This document shows positions 1 to 17,233 of a stretch of 64,000 nucleotides of DNA, piece after piece. The position numbers and the translations under genes were made by a program. Source of the DNA: Escherichia coli (GTDB lineage Bacteria; Pseudomonadota; Gammaproteobacteria; Enterobacterales; Enterobacteriaceae); assembly GCF_003019035.1 (NCBI RefSeq), contig NZ_CP027447.1. One strand, written 5' to 3'. Every line of letters starts with the position of its first letter. Position 1 is the first letter of the stretch. The notes under the pieces were generated by a model. That model had not been told where the DNA came from and did no database searches. It worked only from the letters and a program-made list of their open reading frames with translations.

Positions 1-1
1 C

Positions 2-523
2 GTGTTTGAAACCGGCTACAACTGGTCGCTAACCGCCGACCGGCGGGCTTACCGCGTGGGCGATATCCTGACGGTGATCCTCGAAGAATCCACCCAGTCG
101 AGCAAACAGGCGAAAACCAACTTCGGCAAAAGCAACACCGTTGATATCGGCGCGCCGACCATTTTTGGGCACACCAAAGATAAGCTTTCCGGCTCTATCG
201 ACGCCAACCGCGACTTTGACGGCAGCGCCACTTCCCAGCAGCAGAACAGCCTGCGTGGGGAGATCACTGTTTCCGTCCATGCGGTGCAGCCTAACGGTAT
301 TCTCGAAATTCGCGGCGAGAAATGGCTCACCCTCAACCAGGGCGATGAGTACATCCGCTTAAGCGGCCTGGTACGCGCCGACGACATCCAGAACGACAAC
401 TCGGTTTCCTCTCAGCGGATCGCCGATGCCCGCATCTCCTATGCCGGACGCGGCGCGTTAAGCGACGCCAACGCCGCAGGCTGGTTGACGCGGCTGTTTT
501 ACCATCCTCTGTTCCCGATTTAA
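2..523 (+). CDS. lfgH: Flagellar L-ring protein FlgH, lateral (Flag-2) paralogue; 5' end likely outside window
   Basis: ORF begins at window edge; FlgH-like C-terminal region; followed by flgI/J/K/L-like genes in canonical order. Confidence 0.75.
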
Positions 524-537
524 TGCCGGAGAGTGCA

Positions 538-1638
538 ATGCAAAACTGGATAAAGGCCGCAGCGATCGCTGTAAGTCTGACGCTGCCCGGCGTGGCGCTG
601 GCGCAATCGCTGGAGTCGCTGGTCAACGTACAAGGTGTGCGTGAAAACCAACTGGTCGGCTACAGCCTGGTGGTCGGCCTTGACGGCACGGGTGATAAAA
701 ACCAGGTCAAATTTACCAACCAGACCATCACCAATATGTTGCGCCAGTTTGGCGTGCAACTGCCGAATAAAATCGACCCGAAAGTGAAAAACGTCGCCGC
801 GGTAGCGGTGAGCGCCACGCTGCCGCCGATGTACTCGCGCGGGCAGACCATCGATGTCACTGTTTCGTCGATTGGCGATGCTAAAAGTATTCGTGGCGGC
901 ACTTTGTTGCTGACCCAGTTGCACGGCGCGGATGGCGAAGTTTATGCGCTGGCGCAGGGCAGCGTGGTGGTGGGCGGGATGAATGCCACCGGGGCCAGCG
1001 GTTCGAGCGTAACGGTTAATACGCCAACCGCCGGGTTAATTCCTAACGGCGCAACGGTAGAGCGCGAGATCCCCAGCGATTTTCAGATGGGCGACACTAT
1101 CACCCTCAACCTGAAACGTCCGTCGTTTAAAGATGCCAACAATATTGCGGCGGCGATTAACGCCTCGTTTGGCGGCATTGCTACTGCGCAGAGCTCTACC
1201 AACGTCAGCGTGCGCGCGCCCACCAGCCCCGGCGCGCGGGTGGCATTTATGTCGCAACTGGATGATGTACAGGTGCAGGCAGAGAAAATCCGCGCCCGTG
1301 TGGTGTTTAACTCGCGTACCGGCACGGTGGTGATGGGCGATGGCGTTGCGCTGCACGCGGCGGCGGTGTCGCACGGCAGTTTGACCGTCTCGATTAACGA
1401 AACCAGCAACGTCAGCCAGCCGAATGCCTTTGCGAGTGGGCGCACGACGGTAACGCCGCAGAGCAATATCGCGGTGAATCATGCCCGTCCGGGCGTGGTG
1501 AGTTTGCCGGAGTCGAGCAGCCTGAAAACGCTGGTCAATGCGTTGAACAGTTTGGGCGCGACGCCGGACGACATTATGTCGATTTTACAGGCGCTGCATG
1601 AGGCGGGCGCGCTGGATGCCGACCTGGAGGTGATCTGA
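538..1638 (+). CDS. lfgI: Flagellar P-ring protein FlgI (lateral)
   Basis: ORF-track 523..1638; signal-peptide-like N-terminus ([16 protein letters not shown]); GGAGAG RBS 5 nt before ATG at 538, whereas ATG at 523 overlaps lfgH stop without RBS. Confidence 0.85.
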
Positions 1639-1937
1639 TGAAAGTGAACGCCAGCGGCGGGATTGATGGCAGCGATGCGTTAATGGGGCCGAAGGTTCAG
1701 GCCAATGATATTAAGCAGGCCGCGGAGCAGTTTGAGGCGATTTTTTTACGCAACATGCTGAAAGAGATGCGTAAAACCAACGAGTTGTTCGATTCGAAAG
1801 ATAACCCATTTAACAGCGATTCGGTGCGCATGATGCAGGGGTTTTATGACGATGAGTTGTGTAACACCCTGGCGCAGCAGCACGGGATTGGGATTGCGGC
1901 GATGATTGTGAAGCAGTTGTCGCCGAAGGGGAAATGA
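1638..1937 (+). CDS. lfgJ: FlgJ-like rod-binding protein, short form without muramidase domain
   Basis: 99-aa ORF, GGAGGTGA RBS, start overlaps lfgI stop; FlgJ N-domain-like sequence. Confidence 0.7.
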   Translation: MKVNASGGIDGSDALMGPKVQANDIKQAAEQFEAIFLRNMLKEMRKTNELFDSKDNPFNSDSVRMMQGFYDDELCNTLAQQHGIGIAAMIVKQLSPKGK

Positions 1938-1948
1938 GGGGCGCGCTT

Positions 1949-2060
1949 TGCCCCTCACCCTAACCCTCTCCCCAAAGGGGCGAGGGGACCGATTGAGCGC
2001 GGAGGTGAATATGGCGCAGGTTTTCGCCCTCTCCCTGTGGGAGAGGGCCGGGGTGAGGGC
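1949..2060. repeat. GC-rich nested palindromic intergenic element
   Basis: cccctcaccctaaccctctcccc (1951-1973) is mirrored by ccctctccctgtgggagagggccggggtgaggg (2027-2059); perfect hairpin ccctctccc-tgt-gggagaggg; lies between lfgJ stop and lfgK start. Confidence 0.45.
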
Positions 2061-2142
2061 ATCAGCGCGCACCATTATCCACTTAAGAATCCCCATCTTC
2101 ACGCCGCTTTTAACCGGCACGATTTACCGGTAAGGATCCAAC

Positions 2143-3519
2143 ATGGACATGATTAACATCGGCTACAGCGGCGCATCAACCGCGCAGGTAGAGCTGAACG
2201 TCACGGCGCAAAACACCGCCAACGCCATGACCACGGGCTACACCCGTCAGGTGGCGGAGATCAGCACCATCGGCGCCAGCGGTGGTTCGCCGAACAGCGC
2301 CGGTAACGGCGTGCAGGTCGACAGCATTCGCCGCGTCTCTAACCAGTATCAGGTGAATCAGGTGTGGTATGCCGCCAGCGATTACGGCTATTACAGCACC
2401 CAGCAGGGGTATCTCACGCAACTGGAAGCGGTACTGAGCGACGATAACAGCAGCCTGAGCGGCGGCTTCGATAACTTCTTCGCCGCCCTTAACGAAGCGA
2501 CCACCAGCCCCGATGATTCCGCCCTGCGCGAACAGGTGATCAGCGAAGCCGGGGCGCTGTCGTTGCGTATCGACAACACGCTGGATTACATCGACTCGCA
2601 AAGCACGGAAATCATCAGCCAGCAGCAGGCGATGGTGTCGCAAATCAACACGCTCACCAGCGGTATCGCCAGCTATAACCAGCAAATCGCCCAGGCTGAA
2701 GCCAACGGTGATAATGCCTCCGCGCTGTATGACGCCCGTGACCAGATGGTGGAAGAGCTTAGCGGGATGATGGATGTGCAGGTCAATATCGACGACCAGG
2801 GCAACTACAACGTCACCCTGAAAAACGGTCAGCCGCTGGTGAGCGGGCAACAAAGCTCGACCATCGCGCTGGAAACCAACGCCGACGGTACGCCGACCAT
2901 GTCGCTGACGTTCGCTGGCACCACCTCGACGATGACTACCGACACCGGCGGTTCATTAGGCGCACTGTTTGATTATCAAAACGACGTGCTGACGCCGCTG
3001 ACCGACACCATCAACAGCATGGCGTCGCAGTTTGCCGATGCGGTCAACAATCAACTGGTGCAGGGCTACGATCTCAACGGTAACCCCGGCGAGCCGCTGT
3101 TTATTTACGATGCCAGCAATGCCGATGGCCCGCTGACCGTTAACCCGGATATCACCGCCGATGAACTGGCGTTCTCCAGTTCGCCGGATGAAAGCGGCAA
3201 CAGCGACAACCTCCAGGCGCTGATCAATATCTCCACCGAACCGCTGGAGATAGCCAACCTTGGCAGCGTGACGGTCGGGCAGGCGTGCTCGTCAATCATC
3301 AGCAATATCGGCATTTACAGTCAGCAAAATCAGACGGAAGTCGATGCCGCGTCCAATGTCTATTCCGCAGCGCAAAACCAGCAGAGTAGCGTCAGCGGCG
3401 TCAGCATGGACGAAGAAGCGGTGAACCTGATCACCTATCAACAAATTTATGAAGCTAATCTGAAAGTCATTTCCGCCGGGGCCGAGATTTTCGATTCGGT
3501 GCTGGAAATGTGCAGCTAA
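2143..3519 (+). CDS. lfgK: Flagellar hook-associated protein 1 FlgK (lateral)
   Basis: 458-aa ORF; FlgK-like conserved N- and C-terminal helical ends (C-terminus ...EEAVNLITYQQIYEANLKVISAGAEIFDSVL). Confidence 0.85.
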   Translation: MDMINIGYSGASTAQVELNVTAQNTANAMTTGYTRQVAEISTIGASGGSPNSAGNGVQVDSIRRVSNQYQVNQVWYAASDYGYYSTQQGYLTQLEAVLSDDNSSLSGGFDNFFAALNEATTSPDDSALREQVISEAGALSLRIDNTLDYIDSQSTEIISQQQAMVSQINTLTSGIASYNQQIAQAEANGDNASALYDARDQMVEELSGMMDVQVNIDDQGNYNVTLKNGQPLVSGQQSSTIALETNADGTPTMSLTFAGTTSTMTTDTGGSLGALFDYQNDVLTPLTDTINSMASQFADAVNNQLVQGYDLNGNPGEPLFIYDASNADGPLTVNPDITADELAFSSSPDESGNSDNLQALINISTEPLEIANLGSVTVGQACSSIISNIGIYSQQNQTEVDAASNVYSAAQNQQSSVSGVSMDEEAVNLITYQQIYEANLKVISAGAEIFDSVLEMCS

Positions 3520-3533
3520 GCGGGAGCGCGAAA

Positions 3534-4463
3534 ATGCGAGTAACCACCCAACAAACCTACGTCTCGATGACGCAAAGTTTTAATAATCTCTCCGGCTCTC
3601 TGGCGCATGTGGTCGAGCAGATGGCAACCGGCAAGGAAATTTTGCAGCCGTCGGATGACCCGATCGCCGCCACGCGTATCACCCAGTTGAACCGCCAGCA
3701 GTCGGCGATTGAGCAGTATCAAAGCAATATTGACTCTGCGTCGGCGGGGTTAAGCCAGCAGGAGTCGATTCTCGATGGCGTCAACAACAGCCTGCTGGCG
3801 GTGCGCGACGACCTGCTGGAAGCGGCGAACGGCACCAATACCGCTGATTCGCTCGCAAGCCTCGGGCAGGATATTCAGTCGCTCACCGAATCGATGGTGG
3901 CGGCGCTCAATTATCAGGACGAAGACGGGCATTACGTGTTTGGCGGTACCATCAACGATCAGCCGCCGATTGTGGCGGTGGACGATGATGGCGATGGCGT
4001 GACCGACAGCTATAGCTATCAGGGCAACAGCGACCACCGCCAGACCACGGTGTCGAACGGCGTGGAAGTGGATACCAACGTGGCGGCGAGCGATTTCTTC
4101 GGCAGCAATTTAGATGTGCTCAACACGCTCAATTCGCTCTCTCAGGAGTTGCAAGACCCAAACGTTGACCCGGCCGATCCGCAGGTGCAGAGCGATATTC
4201 AGAACGCCGTTGATGTGGTGGACACCGCTTCGGACGATCTCAACGCCTCGATTGCGTCGCTTGGCGAGACGCAGAACACCATGTCGATGCTGAGCGATGC
4301 GCAGACCGATATTTCTACCTCTAATGATGAGTTGATTGGTTCTTTACAGGATCTCGATTACGGCCCGGCGTCGATCACCTTTACCGGACTGGAAGTGGCA
4401 ATGGAAGCTACCCTCAAGACTTACTCGAAAGTGAGTGAGTTGAATTTATTCAGCGTTCTCTAA
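3534..4463 (+). CDS. lfgL: Flagellar hook-associated protein 3 FlgL (lateral)
   Basis: ORF-track 3510..4463; ATG at 3534 (MRVTTQQ...) is the likely start; flagellin-like N-terminus typical of FlgL. Confidence 0.8.
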   Translation: MRVTTQQTYVSMTQSFNNLSGSLAHVVEQMATGKEILQPSDDPIAATRITQLNRQQSAIEQYQSNIDSASAGLSQQESILDGVNNSLLAVRDDLLEAANGTNTADSLASLGQDIQSLTESMVAALNYQDEDGHYVFGGTINDQPPIVAVDDDGDGVTDSYSYQGNSDHRQTTVSNGVEVDTNVAASDFFGSNLDVLNTLNSLSQELQDPNVDPADPQVQSDIQNAVDVVDTASDDLNASIASLGETQNTMSMLSDAQTDISTSNDELIGSLQDLDYGPASITFTGLEVAMEATLKTYSKVSELNLFSVL

Positions 4464-4479
4464 CTCTTTCAGGAACCGT

Positions 4480-5457
4480 ATGCAGGTCGGACTTACTTCT
4501 TCGTCACTCACCACCGGCGGCGCGCATAGCGCTGCGGTATCGTCGTCAACCGTTGCGCCCACTCAGGCGGTGCGGCAAAAACTCCCGGCGACGGCGAGTG
4601 AATATCCGGCCTCGCCGCTGATTACCACTCGCCCGCAGCGTTACAGTGTGCAGCTTAACGATCAGCTCACCACGTTGCAGCAGGCGGATCACTATCTCGG
4701 GCAACTGGAACAGCAGTTGCTCGATTACCGTCACAGCCAGCGTAAGGGCGGGCAGGCGCAGAGTTCAGCGCTGATGCAGATGCTGGACAAACGCACCGCG
4801 CTTTCCGGCGGCGCGGTGGACCGCCAGTTGCAGCCAGTGTTGCAGGGGGAAGCGCGGGTGACTTTTCACTCGCCGGATCTGACGAATCTGGTACACAATC
4901 CCACGCCGGGAACGCGCATGTTCAGTGTCACTGGCGGGCGGCAGACCCAGCTTTCGGCGGTGATGCTGTCTGAGGATGACAGCGCCGCGCAGTATCAGAC
5001 GCGGCTGACCAACGCTCTGCGCCGCGTGGGTGTGCAACTGCATCAGCAAGCGGACGGCATCAGCTTCTCCACCACTGAAAAACAGTGGCCCCATATCGAG
5101 CGCACCTTAAGCGTGCGCACCGATGGCGATAAGTCGGCGTTTATGCCGCTGAAAACCTTTGCCGAACCGTCACAGGCGGACCGCTTAGCGCAAAGCCTGC
5201 AACAAGGCGGGGCGGGAATTTCTCAAATGCTGGAAAACATTAATCAGCAGCGCGCGCAAATGGCGGTGCAGCAGGAAAAAGCGCGGCAGTTGATCGACGG
5301 CATGTCCCGCTTCCCGCAAACGGAAAGCGCCGTGCAGGCGTCGGAAAATCTCGGCGGCGTGCTGGATAGCGCCAATCATAACTATCAAGTTTTATTGCAG
5401 GCGGTGAACGGTCAGGCACGGATTTCCAGCCAGACGGTGAGGAGTTTATTGGGGTAG
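4480..5457 (+). CDS. lafW: Hypothetical lateral-flagellar protein (LafW position)
   Basis: 325-aa ORF with AGGAA RBS; position between lfgL and lafZ; no recognisable domain. Confidence 0.5.
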   Translation: MQVGLTSSSLTTGGAHSAAVSSSTVAPTQAVRQKLPATASEYPASPLITTRPQRYSVQLNDQLTTLQQADHYLGQLEQQLLDYRHSQRKGGQAQSSALMQMLDKRTALSGGAVDRQLQPVLQGEARVTFHSPDLTNLVHNPTPGTRMFSVTGGRQTQLSAVMLSEDDSAAQYQTRLTNALRRVGVQLHQQADGISFSTTEKQWPHIERTLSVRTDGDKSAFMPLKTFAEPSQADRLAQSLQQGGAGISQMLENINQQRAQMAVQQEKARQLIDGMSRFPQTESAVQASENLGGVLDSANHNYQVLLQAVNGQARISSQTVRSLLG

Positions 5458-5547
5458 TGTTATTGAAAATCAATCAAATGAGGCTGTTGTAAAAAATCAT
5501 TTCAGTGCAGAATATGCTATAACTCTACGGGTTAAAAAAGGAATGAA

Positions 5548-5691
5548 ATGACCACTCTCAAGCAACTGATGGATAAGCAAAGCCCTGAAAGTCGTAGGCG
5601 AATAATAAAAAAAGCAGAACGAATCCGGCAAACTATCATTAATAAAAAGCTAGAGTTACCAATAACTAAAACTATCAGCAATTCCGATTGA
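5548..5691 (+). CDS. Possible small ORF (47 aa), hypothetical
   Basis: ATG at 5548 preceded by AAGGAA; reads MTTLKQLMDKQSPESRRRIIKKAERIRQTIINKKLELPITKTISNSD; below ORF-track size cutoff; AT-rich intergenic context. Confidence 0.2.
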   Translation: MTTLKQLMDKQSPESRRRIIKKAERIRQTIINKKLELPITKTISNSD

Positions 5692-5760
5692 TTTCATTCG
5701 GGATTTTCGTTGGCCGGATAAGACGCGTTTAGCGTCGCATCCGGCATATATTGGCACTCG

Positions 5761-6654
5761 TCAGCATTTCTGCACAGTATTTAACAACTTCTCTAAATTC
5801 TGATACATCGCGCGATTAATATCGCTGTTCTGCCAGCCTTCCACATTAAAAGTTAATTGCCAGCTACCATTGCACTGGTTGCGCAGAACAATATCACTTT
5901 CCAGTCGGTTACGAACATATTTATAATAAGTTGTCATTGTCATATTATGCGCTGACAATAAATTATCGAGTTTGTCTTTTCCTGGTTCGAGGGTTTGTGA
6001 CAGTAACGGTACGGAATTATTTTCCTTTCCAGAACTAAGATGAAATATTTTTATTCTTGGACTGTTAATTGACTCTTTTACCAGTTGCGGGGCGTCAGGT
6101 GTACTTTTCAAGTGTGAATACCCCACGGTCGAGCCAATAAATATAACAGCCGCGGTCAACGCTAACCCCATCAGTCCTTTATGTTTTTTTCTAACTGGTA
6201 CAGGCGGTGTTGTCGAAGATATCTCTTCTGACACAGTTTCCTGTACCTGGTCGGTAATCATCAGCTTTTCCGCAGGCGATAACTCCGGCAAAGACACATA
6301 CTCTTTATTGCACAAGTAACCTTTCTTCGGAATTGTTTTAATAATGTTCTGTTGTTTGCCATCATCGTCGATAGCAACGCGTAACGCATGGATCGCCGTC
6401 GGCAGGCTGTTACCGCCGACTATGCGGTTCTTCCATACTTCGGCACATAAATAAGATCGCGATAAAACCACATCGGCATTTTTTGCTAATGTTTCCAGCA
6501 AAATAAAATGGTATTCGCCGAGACGACGTGTTTCACCCGTTTCGCAATGTATTAAGGCATTAAGCGACGGGTCCATCCGCCAGTTGTTGATAATAATACT
6601 CATAGTTGAGTTTACCTTAGCAAGGGATAAATGTTTCCTGATAGTGCTTTGCAT
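5761..6654 (-). CDS. lafZ: Transmembrane transcriptional regulator (ToxR/CadC-like winged-helix N-domain plus one TM helix), LafZ position
   Basis: 297-aa ORF; OmpR/PhoB-type winged-helix-like N-terminus; hydrophobic segment LMGLALTAAVIFIGSTVGY mid-protein; AT-rich gene. Confidence 0.55.
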   Translation of the reverse strand: MQSTIRKHLSLAKVNSTMSIIINNWRMDPSLNALIHCETGETRRLGEYHFILLETLAKNADVVLSRSYLCAEVWKNRIVGGNSLPTAIHALRVAIDDDGKQQNIIKTIPKKGYLCNKEYVSLPELSPAEKLMITDQVQETVSEEISSTTPPVPVRKKHKGLMGLALTAAVIFIGSTVGYSHLKSTPDAPQLVKESINSPRIKIFHLSSGKENNSVPLLSQTLEPGKDKLDNLLSAHNMTMTTYYKYVRNRLESDIVLRNQCNGSWQLTFNVEGWQNSDINRAMYQNLEKLLNTVQKC

Positions 6655-7089
6655 AAAGCACAGTCTTATACGTCCCTGAGAAGATGATTTTTCTGCGTGA
6701 TAATTAATATTTTATGGTAATAGGATTATTCTTAATCACTATATGGCGTGGAAATGTAACGAAATGACAGGACAGGTACAATAGCCAAATGTGTACTATT
6801 TGCAACGCAATGTAAATTTTGGCATCAGTACATTGAGAACAAAACGCGATAATTGATGACAATCTTAACTATATCAAGCATTTGATAAAGACATATTTTG
6901 ATACCTGGCCATGTGGCAGATATTGCTAATAATCTTTTTATCTGAATTTAAACTCTGCTTTTTTTTAGCTAAAAGTGGCATCGGATAATACGTGGCGAAA
7001 AAATTTTAACGGCGATTTTAAGTTTGCTCCTGAGGTGTCGTTTTTACAGGGTATCGAAACGAAAACGATTAATCCCAAGGAGCAGTATC

Positions 7090-8004
7090 ATGTTATCTAT
7101 TAACACCAATAACGCCTCAATGGCCGCCGTTAATGCAATCAGCAAAAGCAGCTCTTCTCTGTCTACATCTATGGAACGCCTGGCAACGGGTAACCGGATT
7201 AACTCTTCTGCCGATGACGCAGCGGGCAAACAAATTGCTAACCGTCTGACAGCACAGTCCAGCGGTATGGGTGTGGCGCTGAGCAACATCAATGATGCCA
7301 CCGCGATGCTGCAAACCGCCGACAGCATGTTCGACGAAATGTCTGATGTGCTGGGTCGTATGAAAGACCTGTCAACTCAGGCAGCGAACGGCACCTACAG
7401 CGACGACGATCTACAGGCGATGCAGGACGAATACGACGAACTGGGTCAGCAGATGTCTGACATGCTGCAAAACACCACTTACGGCGGCACCAACCTGTTC
7501 GGTGTTTCCGGTACCAGCAACACCGGTACTGACGGTCTGTTCCAGAGCGCAGTAACTTTCCAGGTGGGCGCGGAATCTTCCGACACCATGACCGTGAATA
7601 TTTCAAGCCAGCTGAATACCCTGGTGACGGATCTTTCTGCTATCAGCAACTCCTTCAGTGCGGATCAGGCTGACACCACTGGCACCGCAGGCGTTTCTGG
7701 CGGTACTGAGCTGACTGCGTCTGGCTCGGCTAACCAGATGATTACCAGCATTTCGACCGCGATGGATGATGTTTCGCAGATCCAATCCAAGCTGGGTGCG
7801 TCTATTAACCGTCTGAACGACACTGCCAACAACCTGACCAGCATGCAGGACAACACCGAAGTCGCTATCGGTAACATTATGGATACCGACTACGCGACGG
7901 AAGCGTCCAACATGACTAAACAGCAGGTGCTGATGCAGACCGGCATCACCATGCTGAAACAGTCCAACAGCATGTCCAGCATGGTTTCCAGCCTGCTGCA
8001 GTAA
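7090..8004 (+). CDS. lafA: Lateral flagellin
   Basis: ORF-track 7024..8004; ATG at 7090 preceded by AAGGAG RBS; flagellin N-terminus MLSINTNNASMAAVNAI and C-terminus ...MSSMVSSLLQ. Confidence 0.85.
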   Translation: MLSINTNNASMAAVNAISKSSSSLSTSMERLATGNRINSSADDAAGKQIANRLTAQSSGMGVALSNINDATAMLQTADSMFDEMSDVLGRMKDLSTQAANGTYSDDDLQAMQDEYDELGQQMSDMLQNTTYGGTNLFGVSGTSNTGTDGLFQSAVTFQVGAESSDTMTVNISSQLNTLVTDLSAISNSFSADQADTTGTAGVSGGTELTASGSANQMITSISTAMDDVSQIQSKLGASINRLNDTANNLTSMQDNTEVAIGNIMDTDYATEASNMTKQQVLMQTGITMLKQSNSMSSMVSSLLQ

Positions 8005-8014
8005 TGGCGGACTT

Positions 8015-8045
<31 letters not shown>

Positions 8046-8052
8046 ACGAACA

Positions 8053-8080
8053 ACACCGCCTGCGGGCGGTGTTGTGCTTT
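8053..8080 (+). terminator. Rho-independent terminator after lafA
   Basis: acaccgcc-tgcg-ggcggtgt hairpin followed by T-rich tract (tgctttct). Confidence 0.5.
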
Positions 8081-8152
8081 CTGCGGCAGGCGTATTTCCG
8101 CCAGACCGGAAATGGCTTTTCCGCCTGTTTTTCAATCTATTGATTCTTCACA

Positions 8153-8183
8153 TAAAAAATATTGGCACGCCTTTTGCCAATAA
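8153..8183 (+). promoter_or_regulatory. Candidate sigma-28-type promoter upstream of lafB
   Basis: GCCAATAA (8176-8183) is one mismatch from the sigma-28 -10 consensus GCCGATAA; upstream TAAA at 8153 but spacing is longer than consensus. Confidence 0.25.
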
Positions 8184-8209
8184 CCTGACATCGTTATCCG
8201 GAGTCATCA

Positions 8210-9526
8210 ATGATCAACCCAAGAACCATTGCGCAAGAAATCGCCTATGCGGATGTTGCCACTCAGGCGGCAAACTTGCAGGAGAAGCAGAGCGAGCTGG
8301 ATGCTGAAAGCAGCGGCCTGGACTCGCTCAGCTCAGCGTTGAGCGATTTTCAGAGCGCCGTTGACGCGCTGAACAGCGATACTGACGGCCCGGTGACGTT
8401 TGCCGCCACCAGCAATAATGACTCGGCGACCGTTTCCGCTAACTCGCAGGCACAGGCGGGAAGCTACTCGTTTTTCGTTGAGCAACTGGCGCAGGGGCAG
8501 CAAACCACGTTCAGTATGGGCGACGACGCCTTTTCCGCCACCGGCACTTTTGAACTGACGATGGGCGACAGCACCATGGATATTGATCTGTCGGCGGCGG
8601 ATCAAAACGGTGACGGCGACGGTTTTATCGACGCCAGTGAACTGGTGAATGCGATTAACGACTCTGATGACAATCCGGGCGTGTCGGCGGCACTGGTAAA
8701 AACCGACGGCACCACCACCATTATGCTCACCTCCGATAGCACCGGGGCGCAGAGCGCATTTTCGGTGAGCGTAACGGGGCATGACACCAGCAACGATAGC
8801 GCCAGCGCGCCCGTTGCCACGGATGTTTCCTCCGCTCAGGACGCGATTATTCATCTCGGCAGTGCCACAGGGCCTGAGATCACCAACAGCAGCAATACGT
8901 TTGATGATGTGATCCCCGGTGTCACCATGACTTTCACCGAAGTCAGCGATTCTGACAGCGACCTCACTACCTTTAACATTAGCGAAGATTCCAGCGCCAG
9001 CCAGGAGAAAGTGCAGACCTTTGTCGATGCCTATAACACCCTGATCGATACGGTTGATTCGCTAACCACCCACGGTGATGACAGTACCAGCGCCGGGGTA
9101 TTTGCAGGCGACGCAGGACTCAGTTCACTGGCGAACCAGCTCGATGATATCGCCCATGCCAGCTACAACGGGGTATCGATTGTTGACTATGGCATCACGC
9201 TTGATTCTCACGGCCACTTACAGATTGACTCCGACCAGTTCAACGACGAAATGGCGAAAAATCCTGACGGTCTGACCTCTATTTTCGTTGGCGACAACAG
9301 CATGGTGGCACAGATGGACGACCTGATTAACACCTACACGGACTCCAGCAACGGCATCATCACCCTGCGCCAGCAGAACATTGACGATCAGATGAGCAAA
9401 ATTCAGGACGAAGGCGATCAGCTTACTGATACCTATAACGCCAACTACGACCGTTATCTCGAGGAGTACACCAACACGCTGGTCGAGGTGTACACCATGA
9501 AAGCCAGCATGGCGGCATTCGCGTAA
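8210..9526 (+). CDS. lafB: Flagellar filament cap protein FliD-like (lateral HAP2)
   Basis: 438-aa ORF; FliD-like N- and C-terminal regions; follows the flagellin gene. Confidence 0.8.
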   Translation: MINPRTIAQEIAYADVATQAANLQEKQSELDAESSGLDSLSSALSDFQSAVDALNSDTDGPVTFAATSNNDSATVSANSQAQAGSYSFFVEQLAQGQQTTFSMGDDAFSATGTFELTMGDSTMDIDLSAADQNGDGDGFIDASELVNAINDSDDNPGVSAALVKTDGTTTIMLTSDSTGAQSAFSVSVTGHDTSNDSASAPVATDVSSAQDAIIHLGSATGPEITNSSNTFDDVIPGVTMTFTEVSDSDSDLTTFNISEDSSASQEKVQTFVDAYNTLIDTVDSLTTHGDDSTSAGVFAGDAGLSSLANQLDDIAHASYNGVSIVDYGITLDSHGHLQIDSDQFNDEMAKNPDGLTSIFVGDNSMVAQMDDLINTYTDSSNGIITLRQQNIDDQMSKIQDEGDQLTDTYNANYDRYLEEYTNTLVEVYTMKASMAAFA

Positions 9527-9548
9527 CTCAGAAGGAATATCCCTAAAG

Positions 9549-9941
9549 ATGTACCAAGTACAGGACGGCTATTCGCAATATAAAGAGATCGATCTCGCGG
9601 CGCGTACTGCGGCGGCATCGCCTCTGGAACTGGTGCTGGTGCTGTTTTCTGGTCTGATGGACGAGCTGGAACGCGCCAAAAGCCATATTGAAGGGCGGCG
9701 TTTCGAGAAGAAAGCCCAGAGCATCAATAAATGCATCGACATTCTCAATGCGCTCACCAGTTCGCTGGAGTTTGAAACTGGCGGCGAGCTGGTGGTCAAC
9801 CTTTCGCGCCTCTATGACCACTGTGTGTATCGCTTGTATGAGGCTAGCGGCGAACTGTCGGCAGAGAAAATCGATGAAGTGATGCTGATCTTAAGCAACC
9901 TGCGTGAAGGCTGGGAAGGGCTTTCGGGCAAGCTGGGTTAA
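9549..9941 (+). CDS. lafC: Flagellar export chaperone FliS-like
   Basis: 130-aa ORF; FliS-like sequence; canonical position after fliD-like gene. Confidence 0.75.
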   Translation: MYQVQDGYSQYKEIDLAARTAAASPLELVLVLFSGLMDELERAKSHIEGRRFEKKAQSINKCIDILNALTSSLEFETGGELVVNLSRLYDHCVYRLYEASGELSAEKIDEVMLILSNLREGWEGLSGKLG

Positions 9942-9945
9942 GACG

Positions 9946-10257
9946 ATGGAAAAACAACGCAGGCAACTTTTCGCGCTGGTTGAAGCGATGAACGAAGCCC
10001 TCGACAAGCAACGCTGGCGACGCCTTCCGGCACTGCATCAGCAGTTGATGCGCCAGTTTCACGATTACGTGGCGGCGGAAACCGACGCGGCGCAGTTGTG
10101 TGCGGTGAAGGCGCAGCTGTACGGCGCGTTTAATGCCCTGATTAAACGGCGCGAGCAGCGTGCAGAAGTGTTGACGGCGCGTATGGAACAGCATCAGCGG
10201 CATCAGGAAGGCGTACTGGCCTACTCAATTGTTAATTTACTTTCGGAGAAGTCATGA
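9946..10257 (+). CDS. lafD: FliT-like chaperone / LafD
   Basis: ORF-track 9904..10257; ATG at 9946 follows lafC stop; small helical protein at FliT position. Confidence 0.45.
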   Translation: MEKQRRQLFALVEAMNEALDKQRWRRLPALHQQLMRQFHDYVAAETDAAQLCAVKAQLYGAFNALIKRREQRAEVLTARMEQHQRHQEGVLAYSIVNLLSEKS

Positions 10258-11312
10258 ATCCGGCATTGCTTGCCACGCTCGGAACACTTGCGGAAACGGC
10301 GTCGCTGAAAGCGGATATTTTACCGCCGGTGAGTAGTGAAAACGCGCCCGCGTTTACCCTGCCGAAAATGGCGGTCGCGGCGGTGGCGGAGCGCGTTCAT
10401 AGCGCAAAAACCAGTCAGCAACAGGCGACGCGCCCGCAGGAGAACGATCCGGTGGCGATGCAGGCGCTAATGGCGCTGTTACTTCCGCAACCTGCCGCGC
10501 CGCATCAGGTCACGCCGCAGCCGCGAAACGTCGCAACATCGCCGGTTATCCAGCAATTGACGAAAGCGGTGGTGCAAAACGCGCCGCAACGCCCGACGCA
10601 GCAGCAGGAATTCACGCCGTTGCCGCCGCAGTTGCAGGAGCTGATCAGTCAGTTGCCGCAGGCGAAACCCGAACAGCAGGCCAGACTGGCAATTTACGCC
10701 AGTGAAGATTTACATGCCATTGCGCCGACGCAGCCGCGCGTCTCAACACAGCCAGCTCGCCCGAAACCTGAACTAACCCGTGTGAACGCGCGCCCGCAGG
10801 TCGAGCGTAAAACGGAAAAAGTGCCGGACAGCGAACCGGTTATTGCGCGTGCGGTGTTGCAGGTTAAGACGCCGGATCTGGTCAGCGAACATCAGGAGAT
10901 TGTCGCCAAACCAGCCACGCTTTCGATGGACGAACTGGGCGAAAAACTGACGACGCTGTTGAAAGATCAGATCCACTTTCAGCTCAACAAACAACAGCAG
11001 ATCTCCACCATCCGTCTCGATCCACCGTCGCTTGGCAAGCTCGAGATCGCCGTACAACTCGACAACGGCAAACTGATGGTGCACATCGGCGCGAACCAAA
11101 GTGAAGTTTGCCGCGCGTTACAGCAGTTTAGCGACGATCTCCGCCAGCATCTGACGGCGCAAAATTTTATGGAGGTGAACGTACAGGTTTCCTCCGAAGG
11201 GCAGTCGCAGCAACAACAGTCGGGCCATCAGCAGGAAGAGGTGAGTGCCGCCTTACAGCTTGATGATGCGCCTCAATTTCAACAGAACGAATCCGTTTTG
11301 ATCAAAGTGTAA
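10254..11312 (+). CDS. lafE: Hook-length control protein FliK-like
   Basis: 352-aa ORF; Pro/Gln-rich low-complexity central region and conserved C-terminal domain typical of FliK. Confidence 0.6.
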   Translation: MNPALLATLGTLAETASLKADILPPVSSENAPAFTLPKMAVAAVAERVHSAKTSQQQATRPQENDPVAMQALMALLLPQPAAPHQVTPQPRNVATSPVIQQLTKAVVQNAPQRPTQQQEFTPLPPQLQELISQLPQAKPEQQARLAIYASEDLHAIAPTQPRVSTQPARPKPELTRVNARPQVERKTEKVPDSEPVIARAVLQVKTPDLVSEHQEIVAKPATLSMDELGEKLTTLLKDQIHFQLNKQQQISTIRLDPPSLGKLEIAVQLDNGKLMVHIGANQSEVCRALQQFSDDLRQHLTAQNFMEVNVQVSSEGQSQQQQSGHQQEEVSAALQLDDAPQFQQNESVLIKV

Positions 11313-11319
11313 AGGCAAT

Positions 11320-11787
11320 ATGAAGAAAATCGTGGTGGCGGGCGTGGTCAGCGCCGTTCTGGCGTTGGTGGTCGGCGCTGGAGCTGGATGGGGTGTCTGG
11401 CATCATTATGCCGGAAAAGGAAAACCGACTGCCGTTGCGCGGACGGAAGCGGTAGAAACCCTGGATGAAAGCAAAAGCGTGTTTGTGACGCTGCCGGAAA
11501 CCATTGTCACGCTGCATGACAACAACGGCGCGGACCATTATTTGTCGGCGGAATTAGTGATGGTGGTTGCCAGTGACAAAGAAGCGGAAAAAATAAAGCA
11601 TCAGGAGCCGTTGTATCAAAGTATTGCGGTTGAATGCCTGACGGAAATGAAATTTGAAGATTTGCGGGGCATGAAAATATCTGCCATCCGCAAACTGATT
11701 TCGGATGCGTTAAAGAAAGATCTTCAGCGTCGCAAAATGAGCGCACCGTATAAGGATTTGCTGGTGAAAAAAGTGGTCTTCCAGTAA
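11320..11787 (+). CDS. lafF: Flagellar basal-body-associated protein FliL-like
   Basis: 155-aa ORF with one N-terminal TM helix (IVVAGVVSAVLALVVGAGAGW); FliL-like topology. Confidence 0.6.
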   Translation: MKKIVVAGVVSAVLALVVGAGAGWGVWHHYAGKGKPTAVARTEAVETLDESKSVFVTLPETIVTLHDNNGADHYLSAELVMVVASDKEAEKIKHQEPLYQSIAVECLTEMKFEDLRGMKISAIRKLISDALKKDLQRRKMSAPYKDLLVKKVVFQ

Positions 11788-11806
11788 TCACCAGGCGGAT
11801 ATAAAC

Positions 11807-12526
11807 ATGCTACAGGACGTATTATTCGAGTCAGAAGAATTTGCTGCCGCGCCGGTATTAACCCCGCAGCAGGAGAGCCACTACTTGCAGGCCTATTTAC
11901 CACTGGTGCGTAAAGTGGTGCGGCAACTTGCCCCGCAGTGTAATTGCATTATTGATCGTCAGGATATGGAACAAACGGCGTTAATGGGGCTGCTTAATGC
12001 CATTCGCCGCTACGGGCTGCCGGACGAAGGTTTTGCGGGCTATGCCGTGCACCGTATTCGCGGCGCGATCCTGGATGAGCTGCGCGCTCTCGACTGGCGA
12101 CCGCGCCAGCTGCGACAGAAATATCATCAGATGAAAGACCTGATTCGCGAAACGCGTAAAAAACTGGGGCACGAACCGGAGTGGCAGGAGCTGGCTGAGG
12201 AAGGGATCTCGCATGAAGATTATCTCGAATATCAGCAACTGGAAGGGGCGGAAACGCTCGCCAGCCTGGACGAACTGCTGAACGGCGAAGGGCCAGGCAT
12301 TCCGCTTGCTGGCAGAGACCTGGAAGATCAGTTTGTCACGCAGAAAATGCTGCAACACGCGCTTTCACAATTAAGCGAAAAAGAGCAACTGATCCTCTCC
12401 ATGTATTACCAGCATGAGATGAATCTCAAAGAGATTGCGCTGGTATTAGGGCTAACCGAGGCCCGAATTTGTCAACTGAATAAACAGATCGCGCAGAAAA
12501 TTCGTGATTTTGTCTATCCGAATTAA
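11807..12526 (+). CDS. lafS: Flagellar sigma factor, sigma-28 (FliA-like)
   Basis: 239-aa ORF; sigma-70 family regions 2 and 4 recognisable; C-terminal HTH ...LKEIALVLGLTEARICQLNKQ. Confidence 0.85.
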   Translation: MLQDVLFESEEFAAAPVLTPQQESHYLQAYLPLVRKVVRQLAPQCNCIIDRQDMEQTALMGLLNAIRRYGLPDEGFAGYAVHRIRGAILDELRALDWRPRQLRQKYHQMKDLIRETRKKLGHEPEWQELAEEGISHEDYLEYQQLEGAETLASLDELLNGEGPGIPLAGRDLEDQFVTQKMLQHALSQLSEKEQLILSMYYQHEMNLKEIALVLGLTEARICQLNKQIAQKIRDFVYPN

Positions 12527-12538
12527 AGTGAAGAAATC

Positions 12539-13402
12539 ATGCAAAAAATATTAGGTTTACTGGTGGTGCTCGGCTGCGTATTTGGCGGTTATTTTGAAGC
12601 GGGCGGCCAATTAGTGGCTATCTGGCAGCCTGCAGAGATAGTTATTATTTTAGGTGCTGGTTTCGGGGCGATGATTATTGGGAACCCGAAACATGTGCTG
12701 AAAGAGATTGCCCATCAAATTAAAGGCGTGATCAGTAAAAAACAGCTCGGGCCGGAGTTTCAGCGCCAGCTATTAATGTGCCTGTATGAGTTGCTTGAAA
12801 TGGTACAAAACGGCGGTCTGCGGATGTTGGATCAGCATATTGAGCAGCCGGAAGAGAGTACCGTTTTCCAGAAATACCCGCTGGTGTTAACCCAGAAGCG
12901 GCTGGTGACTTTTATTGCCGATAACTTTCGCCTGATGGCGATGGGTAAAATCGACGCCCATGAACTGGAAGGCATTCTCGATCAGGAGCTGGACACCGCT
13001 GAAGAGTCGCTGTTAACGCCGTCACGCTCGCTGCAACGGACCGCCGAAGCGATGCCGGGATTTGGTATTTGCGCGGCAGTGCTGGGCATCATCATCACCA
13101 TGCAGTCAATTGACGGTTCTATCGCCCTGATTGGCCTGAAAGTGGCGGCAGCGCTGGTGGGGACATTTTTAGGCGTGTTTATTTGCTACTGCCTGATGGA
13201 CCCGCTCGCCAACGCCATGGAACAGCAGGCGCGGGCGGAACATTCGCTGCTGGAGTGTGTGCGTACCGTGCTGGTGGCCCAGGCGGGCGGCAAACCGACG
13301 CTGCTGGCGGTGGACGCCGGGCGTAAGCTGCTGCATCTGGCGTCCAAACCGACCTTCGCCAACCTCGATGCATGGGTGAATGCGATGCTGGAGCAAGAAT
13401 AA
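12539..13402 (+). CDS. lafT: Flagellar stator protein MotA-like
   Basis: 287-aa ORF; four TM segments and cytoplasmic loop typical of MotA/PomA. Confidence 0.85.
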   Translation: MQKILGLLVVLGCVFGGYFEAGGQLVAIWQPAEIVIILGAGFGAMIIGNPKHVLKEIAHQIKGVISKKQLGPEFQRQLLMCLYELLEMVQNGGLRMLDQHIEQPEESTVFQKYPLVLTQKRLVTFIADNFRLMAMGKIDAHELEGILDQELDTAEESLLTPSRSLQRTAEAMPGFGICAAVLGIIITMQSIDGSIALIGLKVAAALVGTFLGVFICYCLMDPLANAMEQQARAEHSLLECVRTVLVAQAGGKPTLLAVDAGRKLLHLASKPTFANLDAWVNAMLEQE

Positions 13403-13404
13403 GC

Positions 13405-14328
13405 ATGAGAAAGACGGGCAACCGCCGCGAGCGTGGGGCAAAAACCACCATCGTCCGGCGGCAGATCAAAAAGAATCATGCCGGGCACCACGGCGGGGCG
13501 TGGAAGGTAGCGTTCGCCGACTTTACCCTGGCGATGATGGCGCTATTTATGACGCTGTGGATTGTCAATAGCGTCAGTAAATCCGAGCGTGAAAGCATTA
13601 TCGCCGCGCTGCACGGGCAGTCGATTTTTAACGGTGGTGGGCTGTCGCCGTTAAATAAAATCAGCCCGTCTCATCCGTCAAAACCTGCCACCGTGGCGGT
13701 GCCGGAAGAGACGGAGAAAAAAGCGCGCGACGTCAACGAGAAAACGGCGCTGCTGAAGAAGAAATCCGCCACCGAGCTTGGTGAGCTGGCAACCAGCATC
13801 AACACCATTGCCCGTGATGCGCATATGGAAGCGAATCTGGAGATGGAGATTGTCCCGCAGGGATTACGCGTGCTGATTAAAGACGACCAGAATCGCAATA
13901 TGTTCGAACGCGGCAGCGCGCAGATTATGCCGTTCTTTAAAACGCTGCTGGTGGAGCTCGCGCCAGTGTTCGACTCGCTCGATAACAAAATTATTATTAC
14001 CGGGCATACCGATGCGATGGCCTACAAAAACAATATCTACAACAACTGGAACCTTTCGGGTGACCGCGCGCTTTCGGCTCGTCGGGTGCTGGAAGAGGCA
14101 GGAATGCCGGAAGATAAAGTGATGCAGGTGAGCGCAATGGCGGACCAGATGCTGCTGGACGCGAAAAATCCGCAAAGCGCGGGCAACCGGCGCATTGAGA
14201 TTATGGTGCTGACTAAAAGCGCGTCCGATACGCTGTATCAATACTTTGGTCAGCATGGGGATAAAGTGGTGCAGCCGCTGGTGCAAAAGCTGGATAAGCA
14301 GCAGGTGCTTTCGCAGCGAACGCGTTAA
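13405..14328 (+). CDS. lafU: Flagellar stator protein MotB-like (OmpA-family peptidoglycan-binding C-domain)
   Basis: ORF-track 13372..14328; ATG at 13405; single TM (FADFTLAMMALFMTLWIV); C-terminal OmpA-like motif (TGHTDAMAY...NWNLSGDRALSARRVL). Confidence 0.85.
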   Translation: MRKTGNRRERGAKTTIVRRQIKKNHAGHHGGAWKVAFADFTLAMMALFMTLWIVNSVSKSERESIIAALHGQSIFNGGGLSPLNKISPSHPSKPATVAVPEETEKKARDVNEKTALLKKKSATELGELATSINTIARDAHMEANLEMEIVPQGLRVLIKDDQNRNMFERGSAQIMPFFKTLLVELAPVFDSLDNKIIITGHTDAMAYKNNIYNNWNLSGDRALSARRVLEEAGMPEDKVMQVSAMADQMLLDAKNPQSAGNRRIEIMVLTKSASDTLYQYFGQHGDKVVQPLVQKLDKQQVLSQRTR

Positions 14329-14398
14329 ATGCTGAATCTTTACGCATTTCTCAAACCCTGAAATCACTGTATACTTTACCAGTGTTGAGAGGTGAGCA

Positions 14399-15454
14399 AT
14401 GCGTAAAATCATTCATGTGGATATGGACTGCTTTTTCGCAGCGGTGGAGATGCGCGACAATCCTGCCCTGCGCGATATCCCTATTGCTATTGGCGGCAGC
14501 CGCGAACGTCGGGGGGTGATCAGCACCGCCAATTATCCCGCGCGTAAATTTGGCGTACGTAGCGCTATGCCGACAGGGATGGCACTCAAATTATGCCCAC
14601 ATCTCACGCTGCTTCCAGGGCGCTTTGACGCCTACAAAGAAGCCTCAAATCATATCCGCGAAATTTTCTCGCGCTATACCTCGCGCATTGAACCGTTATC
14701 ACTGGATGAAGCCTATCTCGACGTCACCGATAGTGTGCATTGCCACGGTTCTGCGACCCTCATCGCCAAGGAAATCCGTCAGACGATCTTTAACGAGCTG
14801 CAACTGACGGCATCTGCGGGCGTTGCGCCGGTAAAGTTTCTCGCCAAAATTGCTTCCGACATGAATAAACCCAACGGTCAGTTTGTGATTACGCCGGCAG
14901 AAGTTCCGGCATTTCTGCAAACCTTACCGCTGGCAAAAATTCCCGGCGTCGGCAAAGTCTCGGCGGCAAAACTGGAAGCGATGGGGCTGCGGACCTGCGG
15001 TGATGTGCAAAAGTGTGATCTGGTGACTCTGCTCAAACGTTTTGGCAAATTTGGCCGCATTTTGTGGGAGCGTAGTCAGGGGATTGACGAGCGCGACGTT
15101 AACAGTGAACGGTTGCGAAAATCCGTCGGCGTGGAACGCACGATGGCGGAAGATATTCATCACTGGTCTGAATGTGAAGCGATTATCGAGCGGCTGTATC
15201 CTGAACTTGAACGCCGTCTGGCAAAGGTAAAACCTGATTTACTGATTGCTCGCCAGGGGGTGAAATTAAAGTTTGATGATTTTCAGCAAACCACTCAGGA
15301 GCACGTCTGGCCGCGGCTGAATAAAGCTGATCTAATCGCCACCGCGCGTAAAACCTGGGATGAACGTCGCGGCGGGCGCGGTGTGCGTCTGGTGGGGCTG
15401 CATGTGACGTTACTTGACCCTCAAATGGAAAGACAACTGGTGCTGGGATTATGA
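14399..15454 (+). CDS. dinB: DNA polymerase IV
   Basis: 351-aa ORF matching E. coli DinB essentially along its length ([20 protein letters not shown]...). Confidence 0.95.
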
Positions 15455-15903
15455 ATAACATACAAATAAGAAACTATCAGCCTTGCGATTTTCAGCAACT
15501 ATGCGCTATTTTCATTAGAGCAGTTACGATGACCGCCAGTCAGCACTATTCTCCACAGCAAATTGCCGCCTGGGCGCAGATTGACGAATCTCGCTGGAAA
15601 GATAAACTCGCGAAATCACAAGTGCGGGTTGCAGTCATTAATGCACAACCGGTTGGTTTTATTTCCCGCATTGAACATTATATCGATATGTTATTTGTTG
15701 ACCCGGAATACACCCGCCGTGGGGTTGCCAGCGCTTTGTTAAAACCTTTGATTAAGTCTGAATCCGAACTTACGGTGGACGCCAGCATAACCGCAAAGCC
15801 CTTTTTTGAACGTTATGGTTTTCAGACAGTTAAGCAGCAGCGCGTTGAATGCCGGGGAGCGTGGTTTATTAATTTTTATATGCGTTATAAACCGCAACAT
15901 TAA
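15451..15903 (+). CDS. yafP: GNAT-family N-acetyltransferase YafP
   Basis: 150-aa ORF; start overlaps dinB stop (ATGA); GNAT-like sequence. Confidence 0.8.
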
Positions 15904-16081
15904 ATCCAGCTTGCAATGAAAATAACGCCCGCCTAGTATGTGTGCGTTTTCTTATTCCACAAACTGCAAGGAGGTAAATCATGACAAATCCTTTATCAAT
16001 GACTCTTTGCAGACCTTTCCAGGATTAATTCTTTTTTTCTTGCCCTGGATTCGTCTGCCATTTCCTGATTTTTATTCATAA

Positions 16082-17233
16082 ATGGAATGGTACATGGGCA
16101 AATATATTCGTCCCTTATCCGATGCGGTATTTACCATCGCATCTGATGACCTGTGGATCGAGAGTTTAGCGATCCAACAATTACACACCACGGCAAATTT
16201 ACCCAACATGCAACGCGTAGTAGGGATGCCAGATTTACATCCCGGACGCGGCTATCCGATTGGCGCAGCGTTCTTCTCCGTAGGCCGTTTTTACCCGGCA
16301 CTGGTCGGCAATGATATCGGCTGCGGTATGGCGCTATGGCAAACAGATATTTTCGCGCGCAAATACAACGCCGATAAGTTTGAAAAGCGATTATCTGCGC
16401 TGGATGACGTTGCTGAAGAAAGCTGGCTGGAGGAAAACCTGCCGTCAGCGTTAGCACAGCATCCGTGGCGCAGCTCGCTGGGTTCCATCGGTGGCGGAAA
16501 CCACTTCGCAGAACTGCAACAAGTTGATCAAATTATCGACGCTGAACTGTTTGCACTGACAGGTCTGGATGCGCAGCATCTGCAACTGCTGGTTCATAGC
16601 GGCTCGAGGGGGCTGGGGCAGTCTATTTTACAGCGGCATATTGCCTCGTTTTCGCATCATGGTTTGCCTGAAGGCAGTGACGACGCGCTACGGTATATTG
16701 CGGAACATGACGATGCGCTGGCGTTTGCGCGTATTAATCGCCAGATGATCGCTTTGCGCATAATGCAACAGGTTAAGGCCACCGGAAGTCCTGTTCTGGA
16801 TGTGGCGCATAACTTTGTTAGCGCCTGTCAAATCGGCGATCAACAGGGCTGGTTGCATCGTAAAGGTGCCACGCCGGATGACAACGGTCTGGTGATTATT
16901 CCCGGTTCACGCGGTGATTACTCCTGGCTGGTTAAACCTGTTGCGAACGAAAAAACACTCCACTCGCTGGCGCATGGGGCAGGGCGTAAATGGGGGCGCA
17001 CCGAGTGTAAAGGGCGTCTGGCAGCGAAATACACGGCGACGCAACTCTCGCGTACTGAACTTGGCAGTCGGGTAATTTGTCGCGATAAACAACTCATCTT
17101 TGAAGAAGCGCCACAAGCCTATAAATCGGCTGAAAGCGTGGTGCAATGTCTGGTGCAGGCCGGTTTAATTATTCCTGTCGCGCGGCTGCGTCCGGTGCTA
17201 ACGCTCAAAAACAATGGAGGGAAAAAAGGATGA
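16082..17233 (+). CDS. RtcB-family RNA ligase (PrfH-associated paralogue)
   Basis: 383-aa ORF; RtcB-like metal-binding motifs (GNDIGCG, GGGNHF); stop overlaps prfH start (ATGA). Confidence 0.8.

Follow-up and report, generated by a model that had tools for sequence, protein, structure and literature searches.

A second flagellar gene cluster, Flag-2, was first described in Escherichia coli strain 042 (Ren et al. 2005, J Bacteriol 187:1430, as reported in PMC6993521, PMC3032704 and PMC4578781) and has since been surveyed across the Enterobacterales (De Maayer et al. 2020, PMC6993521), whose cluster nomenclature we follow. Flag-2 resembles the lateral flagellar (laf) systems of Vibrio parahaemolyticus and Aeromonas hydrophila in its short flagellin LafA, its dedicated sigma-28 factor LafS, a top regulatory tier of LafK and sigma-54, and a MotA/MotB-type stator, LafT and LafU (PMC3032704, PMC6993521). 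The Vibrio and Aeromonas systems are proven to work, drive swarming and operate alongside a polar flagellum, whereas E. coli Flag-2 carries the additional genes lafW and lafZ, accompanies the peritrichous Flag-1 system and is known from its genes. Among other relatives, Yersinia enterocolitica expresses its Flag-2 at low temperature. In Plesiomonas, swarming depends on Flag-2 (cited in De Maayer et al. 2020). Here we analyse the Flag-2 genes at the start of a 64,000-nucleotide stretch of E. coli DNA (contig NZ_CP027447.1 of RefSeq assembly GCF_003019035.1; hereafter the window). Positions 1-14328 are the end of Flag-2 cluster 2 plus cluster 3, and they very probably represent the distal ~14 kb of a canonical E. 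coli Flag-2 locus, sited between yafL and dinB, uninterrupted and kept by selection.

The existence of such a locus is already known, having been described in 2005 and surveyed in 2020. The survey reported flag-2 in 24 of 100 E. coli, the remaining 76 having stubs of lfhA and lafU, and found 78% of the Enterobacterales flag-2 loci to have a complete gene set (De Maayer et al. 2020, PMC6993521). As far as later papers relay the description of enteroaggregative strain 042, the window shares with it the chromosomal site at dinB, the gene order from lfgH-L to lafU and the three-cluster organisation. The two differ in that 042 has a frameshift in lfgC, which is intact (143 residues) in contigs identical to the window, and in that 042 has a toxin/antitoxin pair between lafW and lafZ (PMC3032704), where the window holds only an apparent 47-codon helix-turn-helix remnant and a repetitive extragenic palindromic (REP) element. 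With strains EC476, EC974, W, Crooks, PCN033 and the sequence type 131 (ST131) strain EC958, the window shares 95-97.6% nucleotide identity, gene-for-gene colinearity, an identical LafA protein and the same sigma-54 promoter before lafB, and it is a different allelic lineage from all six. In these strains lfgC is reported or annotated as uninterrupted (PMC4578781 among the sources); W has a Mu prophage inside the locus, and in EC958 lafW and lafZ are listed as absent (PMC4637896).

An intact Flag-2 is not unusual in the species. At least 80% of the 14.3 kb region was found by megablast in 1264 of 5426 complete E. coli genomes (~23%), a count that agrees with the 24 of 100 in PMC6993521. The nearest complete RefSeq E. 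coli genome reaches no more than 97.6% identity over the Flag-2 region, and larger stretches of the window likewise stay at or below 97.6-98.2%, while several draft genomes, together with one metagenome scaffold, show 100% identity across 15.4 kb.

Gene content, integrity and selection

Open reading frames (ORFs) were taken from a six-frame list, and genes were identified with NCBIfam equivalog models and their curated cut-offs, supplemented by Pfam. Genes run on the plus strand from the first base to 14328, and lafZ is the sole gene on the minus strand. The order lfgH-I-J-K-L, lafW, lafZ, lafA-B-C-D-E-F, lafS, lafT, lafU, dinB is colinear with the annotated loci of EC476 and EC974.

2-523, plus strand: lfgH, L-ring protein; the C-terminal 173 of 221 codons, the window edge lying inside the gene; NF009072 (FlgH) 360 bits over profile positions 48-220 of 220
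538-1638, plus strand: lfgI, P-ring protein, 366 residues; NF003676 (FlgI) 451 bits; 361 of 366 residues as in EC476, of equal length
1638-1937, plus strand: lfgJ, rod-binding protein, 99 residues; Pfam Rod-binding PF10135 53.7 bits; identical to EC476
2143-3519, plus strand: lfgK, hook-filament junction protein 1, 458 residues; TIGR02492 350 bits; 455 of 458 as in EC476
3534-4463, plus strand: lfgL, hook-filament junction protein 3, 309 residues; TIGR02550 196 bits; 308 of 309 as in EC476
4480-5457, plus strand: lafW, Flag-2-specific axial-type protein by fold comparison, 325 residues
5761-6654, minus strand: lafZ, ToxR/CadC-like winged-helix protein; an ORF of 297 codons, or 280 codons from the RefSeq start at 6603
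7090-8004, plus strand: lafA, lateral flagellin, 304 residues; NF033376 667 bits (cut-off 440), positions 1-304 of 304
8210-9526, plus strand: lafB, FliD-like filament cap, 438 residues; NF005955 153 bits (below the cut-off of 387); 437 of 438 as in EC476, where it is annotated FliD
9549-9941, plus strand: lafC, FliS-type flagellin chaperone, 130 residues; TIGR00208 79 bits
9946-10257, plus strand: lafD, FliT counterpart by position, 103 residues; orthology from PMC6993521, length equal to EC476
10254-11312, plus strand: lafE, FliK-like hook-length control protein, 352 residues; Pfam Flg_hook 62 bits
11320-11787, plus strand: lafF, FliL-like protein, 155 residues; NF005435 37 bits (below the cut-off of 131); annotated as FliL family in EC476
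11807-12526, plus strand: lafS, sigma-28 factor of the FliA/WhiG family, 239 residues; NF009091 446 bits (cut-off 339)
12539-13402, plus strand: lafT, MotA-type stator subunit, 287 residues, with four hydrophobic segments; TIGR03818 374 bits (cut-off 304)
13405-14328, plus strand: lafU, MotB-type stator subunit, 307 residues; NF005273 580 bits (cut-off 383)

LafA, LafS, LafT and LafU match their equivalog models end to end and above cut-off, in line with the apparently intact flagellin, sigma-28 and stator set of the preliminary description. The scores identify a dedicated set for this locus, distinct from FliC, FliA and MotAB. The FlgH, FlgI, FlgK, FlgL and FliS models were also matched above cut-off. 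The names LafB and LafF appear reasonable, drawing on weak homology, on where the genes lie and on how RefSeq annotates EC476, and LafF has a single N-terminal hydrophobic segment; LafD matched no family in NCBIfam or Pfam. LfgJ consists of a rod-binding domain and lacks the muramidase domain of the two-domain FlgJ of Flag-1, and so clearance of peptidoglycan for the Flag-2 rod would require another enzyme. In the stator, LafT is 36% identical to K-12 MotA and LafU 33% identical to K-12 MotB. LafU conserves the proton-channel aspartate (D39, equivalent to MotB Asp32), and LafT conserves prolines P173 and P222, with E98 of MotA replaced by D.

That these genes form the uninterrupted second half of a Flag-2 locus is borne out. 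All 15 complete genes are free of internal stops, and their lengths equal those in EC476 except that lafE and lafS each differ by one codon, in frame, and that the length of lafZ depends on the start chosen. The related statement that every gene is of the expected size holds for these 15; lfgH is cut by the window edge, and its size could be judged only through contigs L003 and L004, identical to the window, in which it is whole (221 residues). The lfgI frame has an additional opening at 523. Gene by gene, the window proteins are 94-100% identical to those of EC476.

The differences from EC476 also carry a signal of selection. Across the Flag-2 genes of the window there are 258 synonymous and 55 non-synonymous differences (313 substitutions), giving a ratio of non-synonymous to synonymous rates (dN/dS) of 0.06, which points to long-term purifying selection on the locus, not neutral drift. 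The flagellin gene lafA has 21 synonymous changes and no non-synonymous one, and the LafA protein is unchanged between lineages that differ by ~10% at synonymous sites. Constraint is also among the strongest on the stator genes: lafT and lafU each have a dN/dS of 0.019. The synonymous distance (dS) to EC476 ranges from 0 to 0.24 between neighbouring genes, a spread which suggests a recombination mosaic. In lafE, 9 non-synonymous and 1 synonymous differences accompany the one-codon indel, where all other genes of the locus differ mostly at synonymous sites; the counts are small, and the pattern could reflect relaxed constraint, a patch of recombination or diversifying change.

The upstream half of the locus lies outside the window, and was read in relatives found by exact-sequence look-up of the window's LafW, followed by walking upstream from contig to contig. 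Contigs L003 and L004 are 100% identical to the window over 15,457 nucleotides; L007 matches the window at 100% over 5,385 nucleotides and L004 at 100% over 10,906; and L010 has 3 mismatches in 12,469 nucleotides against L007 (99.976%). Taken together, these four hold every gene of clusters 1 and 2 at full size and uninterrupted. The proteins encoded are LfhA (697 residues), LfhB (379), LfiR (260), LfiQ (90), LfiP (250), LfiN (123) and LfiM (283); LafK (328, with a Sigma54_activat domain, in L010 and L018); LfiE (113), LfiF (548), LfiG (336), LfiH (236), LfiI (445) and LfiJ (144); and LfgN (142), LfgM (92), LfgA (245), LfgB (111), LfgC (143), LfgD (237), LfgE (400), LfgF (245) and LfgG (261). 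The variable region of the relatives encodes a FliB-like lysine methylase, an 823-residue glycosyltransferase and a cytidylyltransferase-like protein, and the junction of lfhA with yafL (NlpC-P60), which falls outside the window, is present in L010. Of the Flag-2 core set of 39 genes (PMC6993521), those in the window are intact here and the remainder are intact in the contigs of 100% and 99.976% identity. Inactivating lesions in the upstream half, which the preliminary description had named as the finding that would speak against an active system, are absent from L003, L004, L007 and L010, the nearest relatives. Decayed Flag-2 loci do occur elsewhere in E. coli: L012 has an insertion sequence (IS1) in lfiM and a split lafK, and L013 has broken lfiP, lfiH and lfiI. 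Their detection indicates that the look-up of relatives is able to reveal lesions where they are present.

Promoter signals, LafZ and the spaces between genes

Three promoter-like signals were read in the window.

8163-8177, plus strand: sigma-54 promoter TGGCACGCCTTTTGC, 33 nucleotides before the lafB ATG, with TGGCAC-N5-TTGC exact
7019-7044, plus strand: candidate sigma-28-like promoter of lafA, TAAGTTT...-N-GTCGTTTT
2084-2110, plus strand: candidate sigma-28-like promoter of lfgK-lfgL-lafW, TAAG-N15-GCCGCTTT

The site before lafB is the sole exact match to the sigma-54 consensus within the 64 kb window. It is also present in EC974, with an equivalent site before lfgB in two other loci, and a sigma-54 promoter before lafB has been reported for PCN033 (PMC4578781). 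From lafB to lafU the intergenic gaps are at most 22 nucleotides or the genes overlap, and lafB-lafU may form a single sigma-54/LafK-dependent operon that includes lafS.

The known E. coli FliA consensus was unmatched before lafA, and we therefore fell back on a motif defined post hoc, TAAG/AAAG-N14-15-RYCGYTTT, which is common to the regions upstream of lafA and lfgK. Once the motif had been fixed from these two sites, a third copy, AAAG-N15-ACCGCTTT with an exact TAAAGTTT in front of it, was located between lfgA and lfgM in a near-identical relative, where 0.04 chance matches would be expected in 21 kb. The three sites are kept in all E. coli lineages compared, EC476 and EC974 included, with changes confined to the spacers. 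In Flag-1, fliC, flgKL and flgMN are sigma-28 (class 3) operons, the counterparts of the lafA, lfgK and lfgM targets. TAAG-N14/15-RYCGYTTT is a reasonable, if post hoc, candidate for the promoter recognised by LafS.

From these signals we propose the following wiring. LafK, encoded upstream of the window, would fire the sigma-54 promoter before lafB and so the operon lafB-C-D-E-F-S-T-U; LafS would next read the sigma-28-like promoters of lafA, lfgK-lfgL-lafW and lfgM. The lafA gene would be monocistronic, insulated from the lafB operon by the REP element and hairpins between them. LafZ, encoded divergently from lafA in an island of low G+C content, would be a candidate input for an envelope or environmental signal.

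The membrane-anchored layout that the preliminary description ascribed to LafZ was recovered. Its N-terminus is a winged helix of OmpR/PhoB type (Pfam PF00486, Trans_reg_C, 51.1 bits against a cut-off of 26.2), whose closest solved relatives in the PDB are the ToxR (E = 3e-8) and CadC (E = 2e-6) DNA-binding domains. One hydrophobic 19-mer spans residues 143-161 of 280 (mean Kyte-Doolittle value 1.85), with 119 residues beyond it, an architecture that supports membrane anchoring. LafZ is thus like the ToxR/CadC family in having an N-terminal OmpR-type winged helix, a single predicted transmembrane segment and a predicted extracytoplasmic C-terminal region of ~120 residues, and unlike it in showing zero detectable sequence similarity beyond the DNA-binding domain. 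A role for LafZ as the regulator of Flag-2, as first proposed, is conjecture. The only readable regulatory signal in the window, the sigma-54 promoter before lafB, points to LafK. A literature search for lafZ returned unrelated text only, and the sole published hint is that a Rouxiella without lafZ is non-motile (De Maayer et al. 2020). Composition sets this part of the locus apart: the G+C content is 38-43% over 5601-7200, which covers lafZ and both its intergenic flanks, against 52-62% in the flanking flagellar genes, so that 5601-7200 is a compositionally foreign island holding the divergent lafZ/lafA control region.

LafW had zero sequence matches in Pfam, NCBIfam and the PDB, and homologues were found in E. 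coli, Citrobacter, Leminorella, Atlantibacter, Siccibacter, Pseudescherichia and Ewingella. In an AlphaFold (AF2) model built from 41 homologues (predicted local confidence, pLDDT, 72), long terminal helices surround an alpha/beta insert. Among structural matches to the model, Foldseek ranks flagellins first (E = 9e-7 to 3e-4, template-modelling score only ~0.3), FlgL being weaker. The model weakly suggests a flagellin-like fold, in agreement with the database label "hook-associated protein".

The intergenic spaces hold palindromic repeats and one gene remnant.

8015-8044, plus strand: REP element after lafA, GCCGGATGCGGCGTAAACGCCTTATCCGGC; exact REP core at 8015-8027, eleven bases past the lafA stop
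8050-8133, plus strand: two terminator-like hairpins, at 8050-8075 (11-bp, GC-rich) followed by GCTTTCT and at 8107-8123 followed by CCTGTTTTTC
5713-5745, minus strand: REP element between the converging lafW and lafZ, a visible palindrome with an exact GCCKGATGCGRCG match at 5733-5745
1938-2070, unstranded: GC-rich dispersed intergenic repeat in the lfgJ-lfgK spacer, with internal palindromes of the CCCTCTCCC...GGGAGAGGG type
5548-5691, plus strand: ORF of 47 codons between lafW and lafZ, called as a 47-residue gene in L004

As REP elements we took extragenic imperfect palindromes of ~30-35 nucleotides matching GCCKGATGCGRCG...CGYCTTATCMGGC; core matches with at most one mismatch number 4, against 0.62 expected. 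The REP element and terminator already noticed behind the flagellin gene stand up on closer inspection. The U tract after the 8050-8075 hairpin is weak, the second hairpin (8107-8133) has a T-run, and the RNA of 8002-8140 folds at -68.1 kcal/mol (z = -6.0), with none of 200 shuffled sequences equally stable; the hairpin of the REP element forms part of this fold. Megablast placed the 1938-2070 repeat in 4704 of 5426 E. coli genomes, including strains that lack Flag-2, and the median number of places per genome was 6. The lfgJ-lfgK and lafA-lafB spacers measure 205 nucleotides each here, against 480 and 289 in EC974, and the numbers of REP and repeat units differ. At the site equivalent to 5548-5691, EC476 and EC974 have an annotated truncated helix-turn-helix pseudogene, and the ORF is probably the remnant of a helix-turn-helix antitoxin gene, from a toxin/antitoxin pair like that of 042 at the same spot. 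A scan of positions 1-16000 at the Rfam gathering thresholds gave zero matches.

The K-12 scar and the flanking DNA

The statement in the preliminary description that K-12 keeps only a deletion scar of this locus next to dinB proved accurate: in MG1655 only the pseudogenes lfhA' and lafU' are found, directly before dinB. Homology of K-12 to the window resumes at 13557, inside lafU, and the deletion ends at about that point.

14366-15454, plus strand: right flank, with a LexA box (14366-14385) and dinB (14399-15454; NF002677 547 bits)

In EC476 and K-12, too, dinB adjoins lafU. An apparent 8 kb insertion in EC974-type genomes (places of 22 kb) was rejected as an artefact of joined paralogous pieces, the locus there being colinear. 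Beyond dinB, the gene overlaps yafP by ATGA at 15451-15454, the toxin-antitoxin pair yafN-yafO that separates the two in K-12 and EC476 being absent. We considered this loss as unusual and rejected the idea, the direct junction being shared by 2569 of 5426 complete E. coli genomes, IAI39, CE10 and Nissle 1917 among them. SCU-301, the complete genome nearest at the dinB-yafP junction (100% over 301 nucleotides), has the Flag-2 deletion scar.

Farther along, rtcB and prfH (RNA ligase and release factor H) are intact at 16082-17844, where K-12 has the pseudogenes ykfJ and prfH. Immediately after a tRNA-Thr(CGU) at 26558-26633 come a tyrosine integrase (26648-27811, minus strand) and phage genes, among them an HK97-type major capsid gene at 48301-49506 and a tape measure protein gene at 53953-55788; 26558-61500 has the appearance of a prophage inserted at the thrW tRNA gene.

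Use, silence or another role

The intact Flag-2 of this lineage could be expressed: every sequence test that we applied permits it, and the statement is strengthened by the signal of selection and by the intact upstream half in identical relatives. How the locus is used, if it is, allows several readings. We put forward tentatively, as one possibility, that a lineage with an intact Flag-2 of ~40 genes builds a proton-driven flagellum of the lateral type under a natural cue that is absent from laboratory media, with LafZ as a possible switch.

A number of observations weigh against this. In ST131 strain EC958, western blots at 28 or 37 °C did not detect LafA, and a fliC mutant showed no motility (PMC4637896). 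This is the sole direct test in E. coli that we found, and the Flag-2 of EC958 has an intact lfgC. E. coli Flag-2 lacks homologues of motY and maf-5, which the lateral systems of Vibrio and Aeromonas need (PMC3032704). In LafT, R90 of MotA is replaced by Q. A search for the E. coli FliA consensus TAAAG-N14-GCCGATAA with up to 3 mismatches found none before lafA, lfgK or lafT, and the sigma-28-like motif that took its place was defined post hoc, from sequences that diverge by only 2-5%. Finally, the upstream half was read from near-identical relatives, not from the DNA of the source genome itself. Across the species the published motility and filament data are negative or ambiguous only (PMC4637896, PMC3032704): lfgC is intact in W and Crooks, but swarming was assayed by a method not specific for Flag-2 (PMC3032704), and the Flag-2 of PCN033 was argued to be functional from sequence alone (PMC4578781). 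The preliminary description had suggested electron microscopy of a "polar-flagellum mutant"; the wording does not fit E. coli, whose Flag-1 flagella are peritrichous.

An alternative reading is a locus that looks intact yet no longer works, or is silenced for good, and that is heading for the lfhA'-lafU' deletion, with too little time elapsed for lesions to appear. The region is missing from ~77% of complete E. coli genomes, of which all but one retain a partial match, comparable to the stubs of K-12 and SCU-301; the decay seen in L012 and L013 fits such a course, as do the expression result in EC958 (PMC4637896) and the missing motY and maf-5 (PMC3032704). The low-GC lafZ-lafA control region may, moreover, be a natural target of H-NS, a link that we infer, and this could account for the silence of Flag-2 in the laboratory. 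Against this reading stand the dN/dS of 0.06 over 313 substitutions, with dS of up to 0.24 per gene, the identity of LafA across lineages ~10% apart at synonymous sites, and the intact state of all ~40 genes in this lineage. We regard a dead or silenced locus as rather unlikely. Selective constraint is itself silent on which function was selected, and something besides locomotion might instead preserve the apparatus, such as adhesion, or export or secretion through the flagellar type III machinery; De Maayer et al. 2020 raised this idea on the basis of cargo genes that some taxa have in their variable regions. The constraint on the stator pair lafT and lafU, hard to explain if rotation were irrelevant, argues against it, as does the swarming driven by Flag-2 in Plesiomonas; the window's share of the locus, for its part, has no effector-like cargo gene, only the 47-codon remnant. 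We consider such a role improbable.

If the proposal of a lateral-type flagellum built under a natural cue is true, its confirmation would establish for the first time that a second flagellar system works in E. coli, and would also give LafZ a function. In practical terms, a lineage whose locus has no visible lesion, which retains lafW and lafZ and whose Flag-2 genes show a dN/dS of 0.06 would be a reasonable strain in which to ask whether Flag-2 is ever used and which signal LafZ might perceive.

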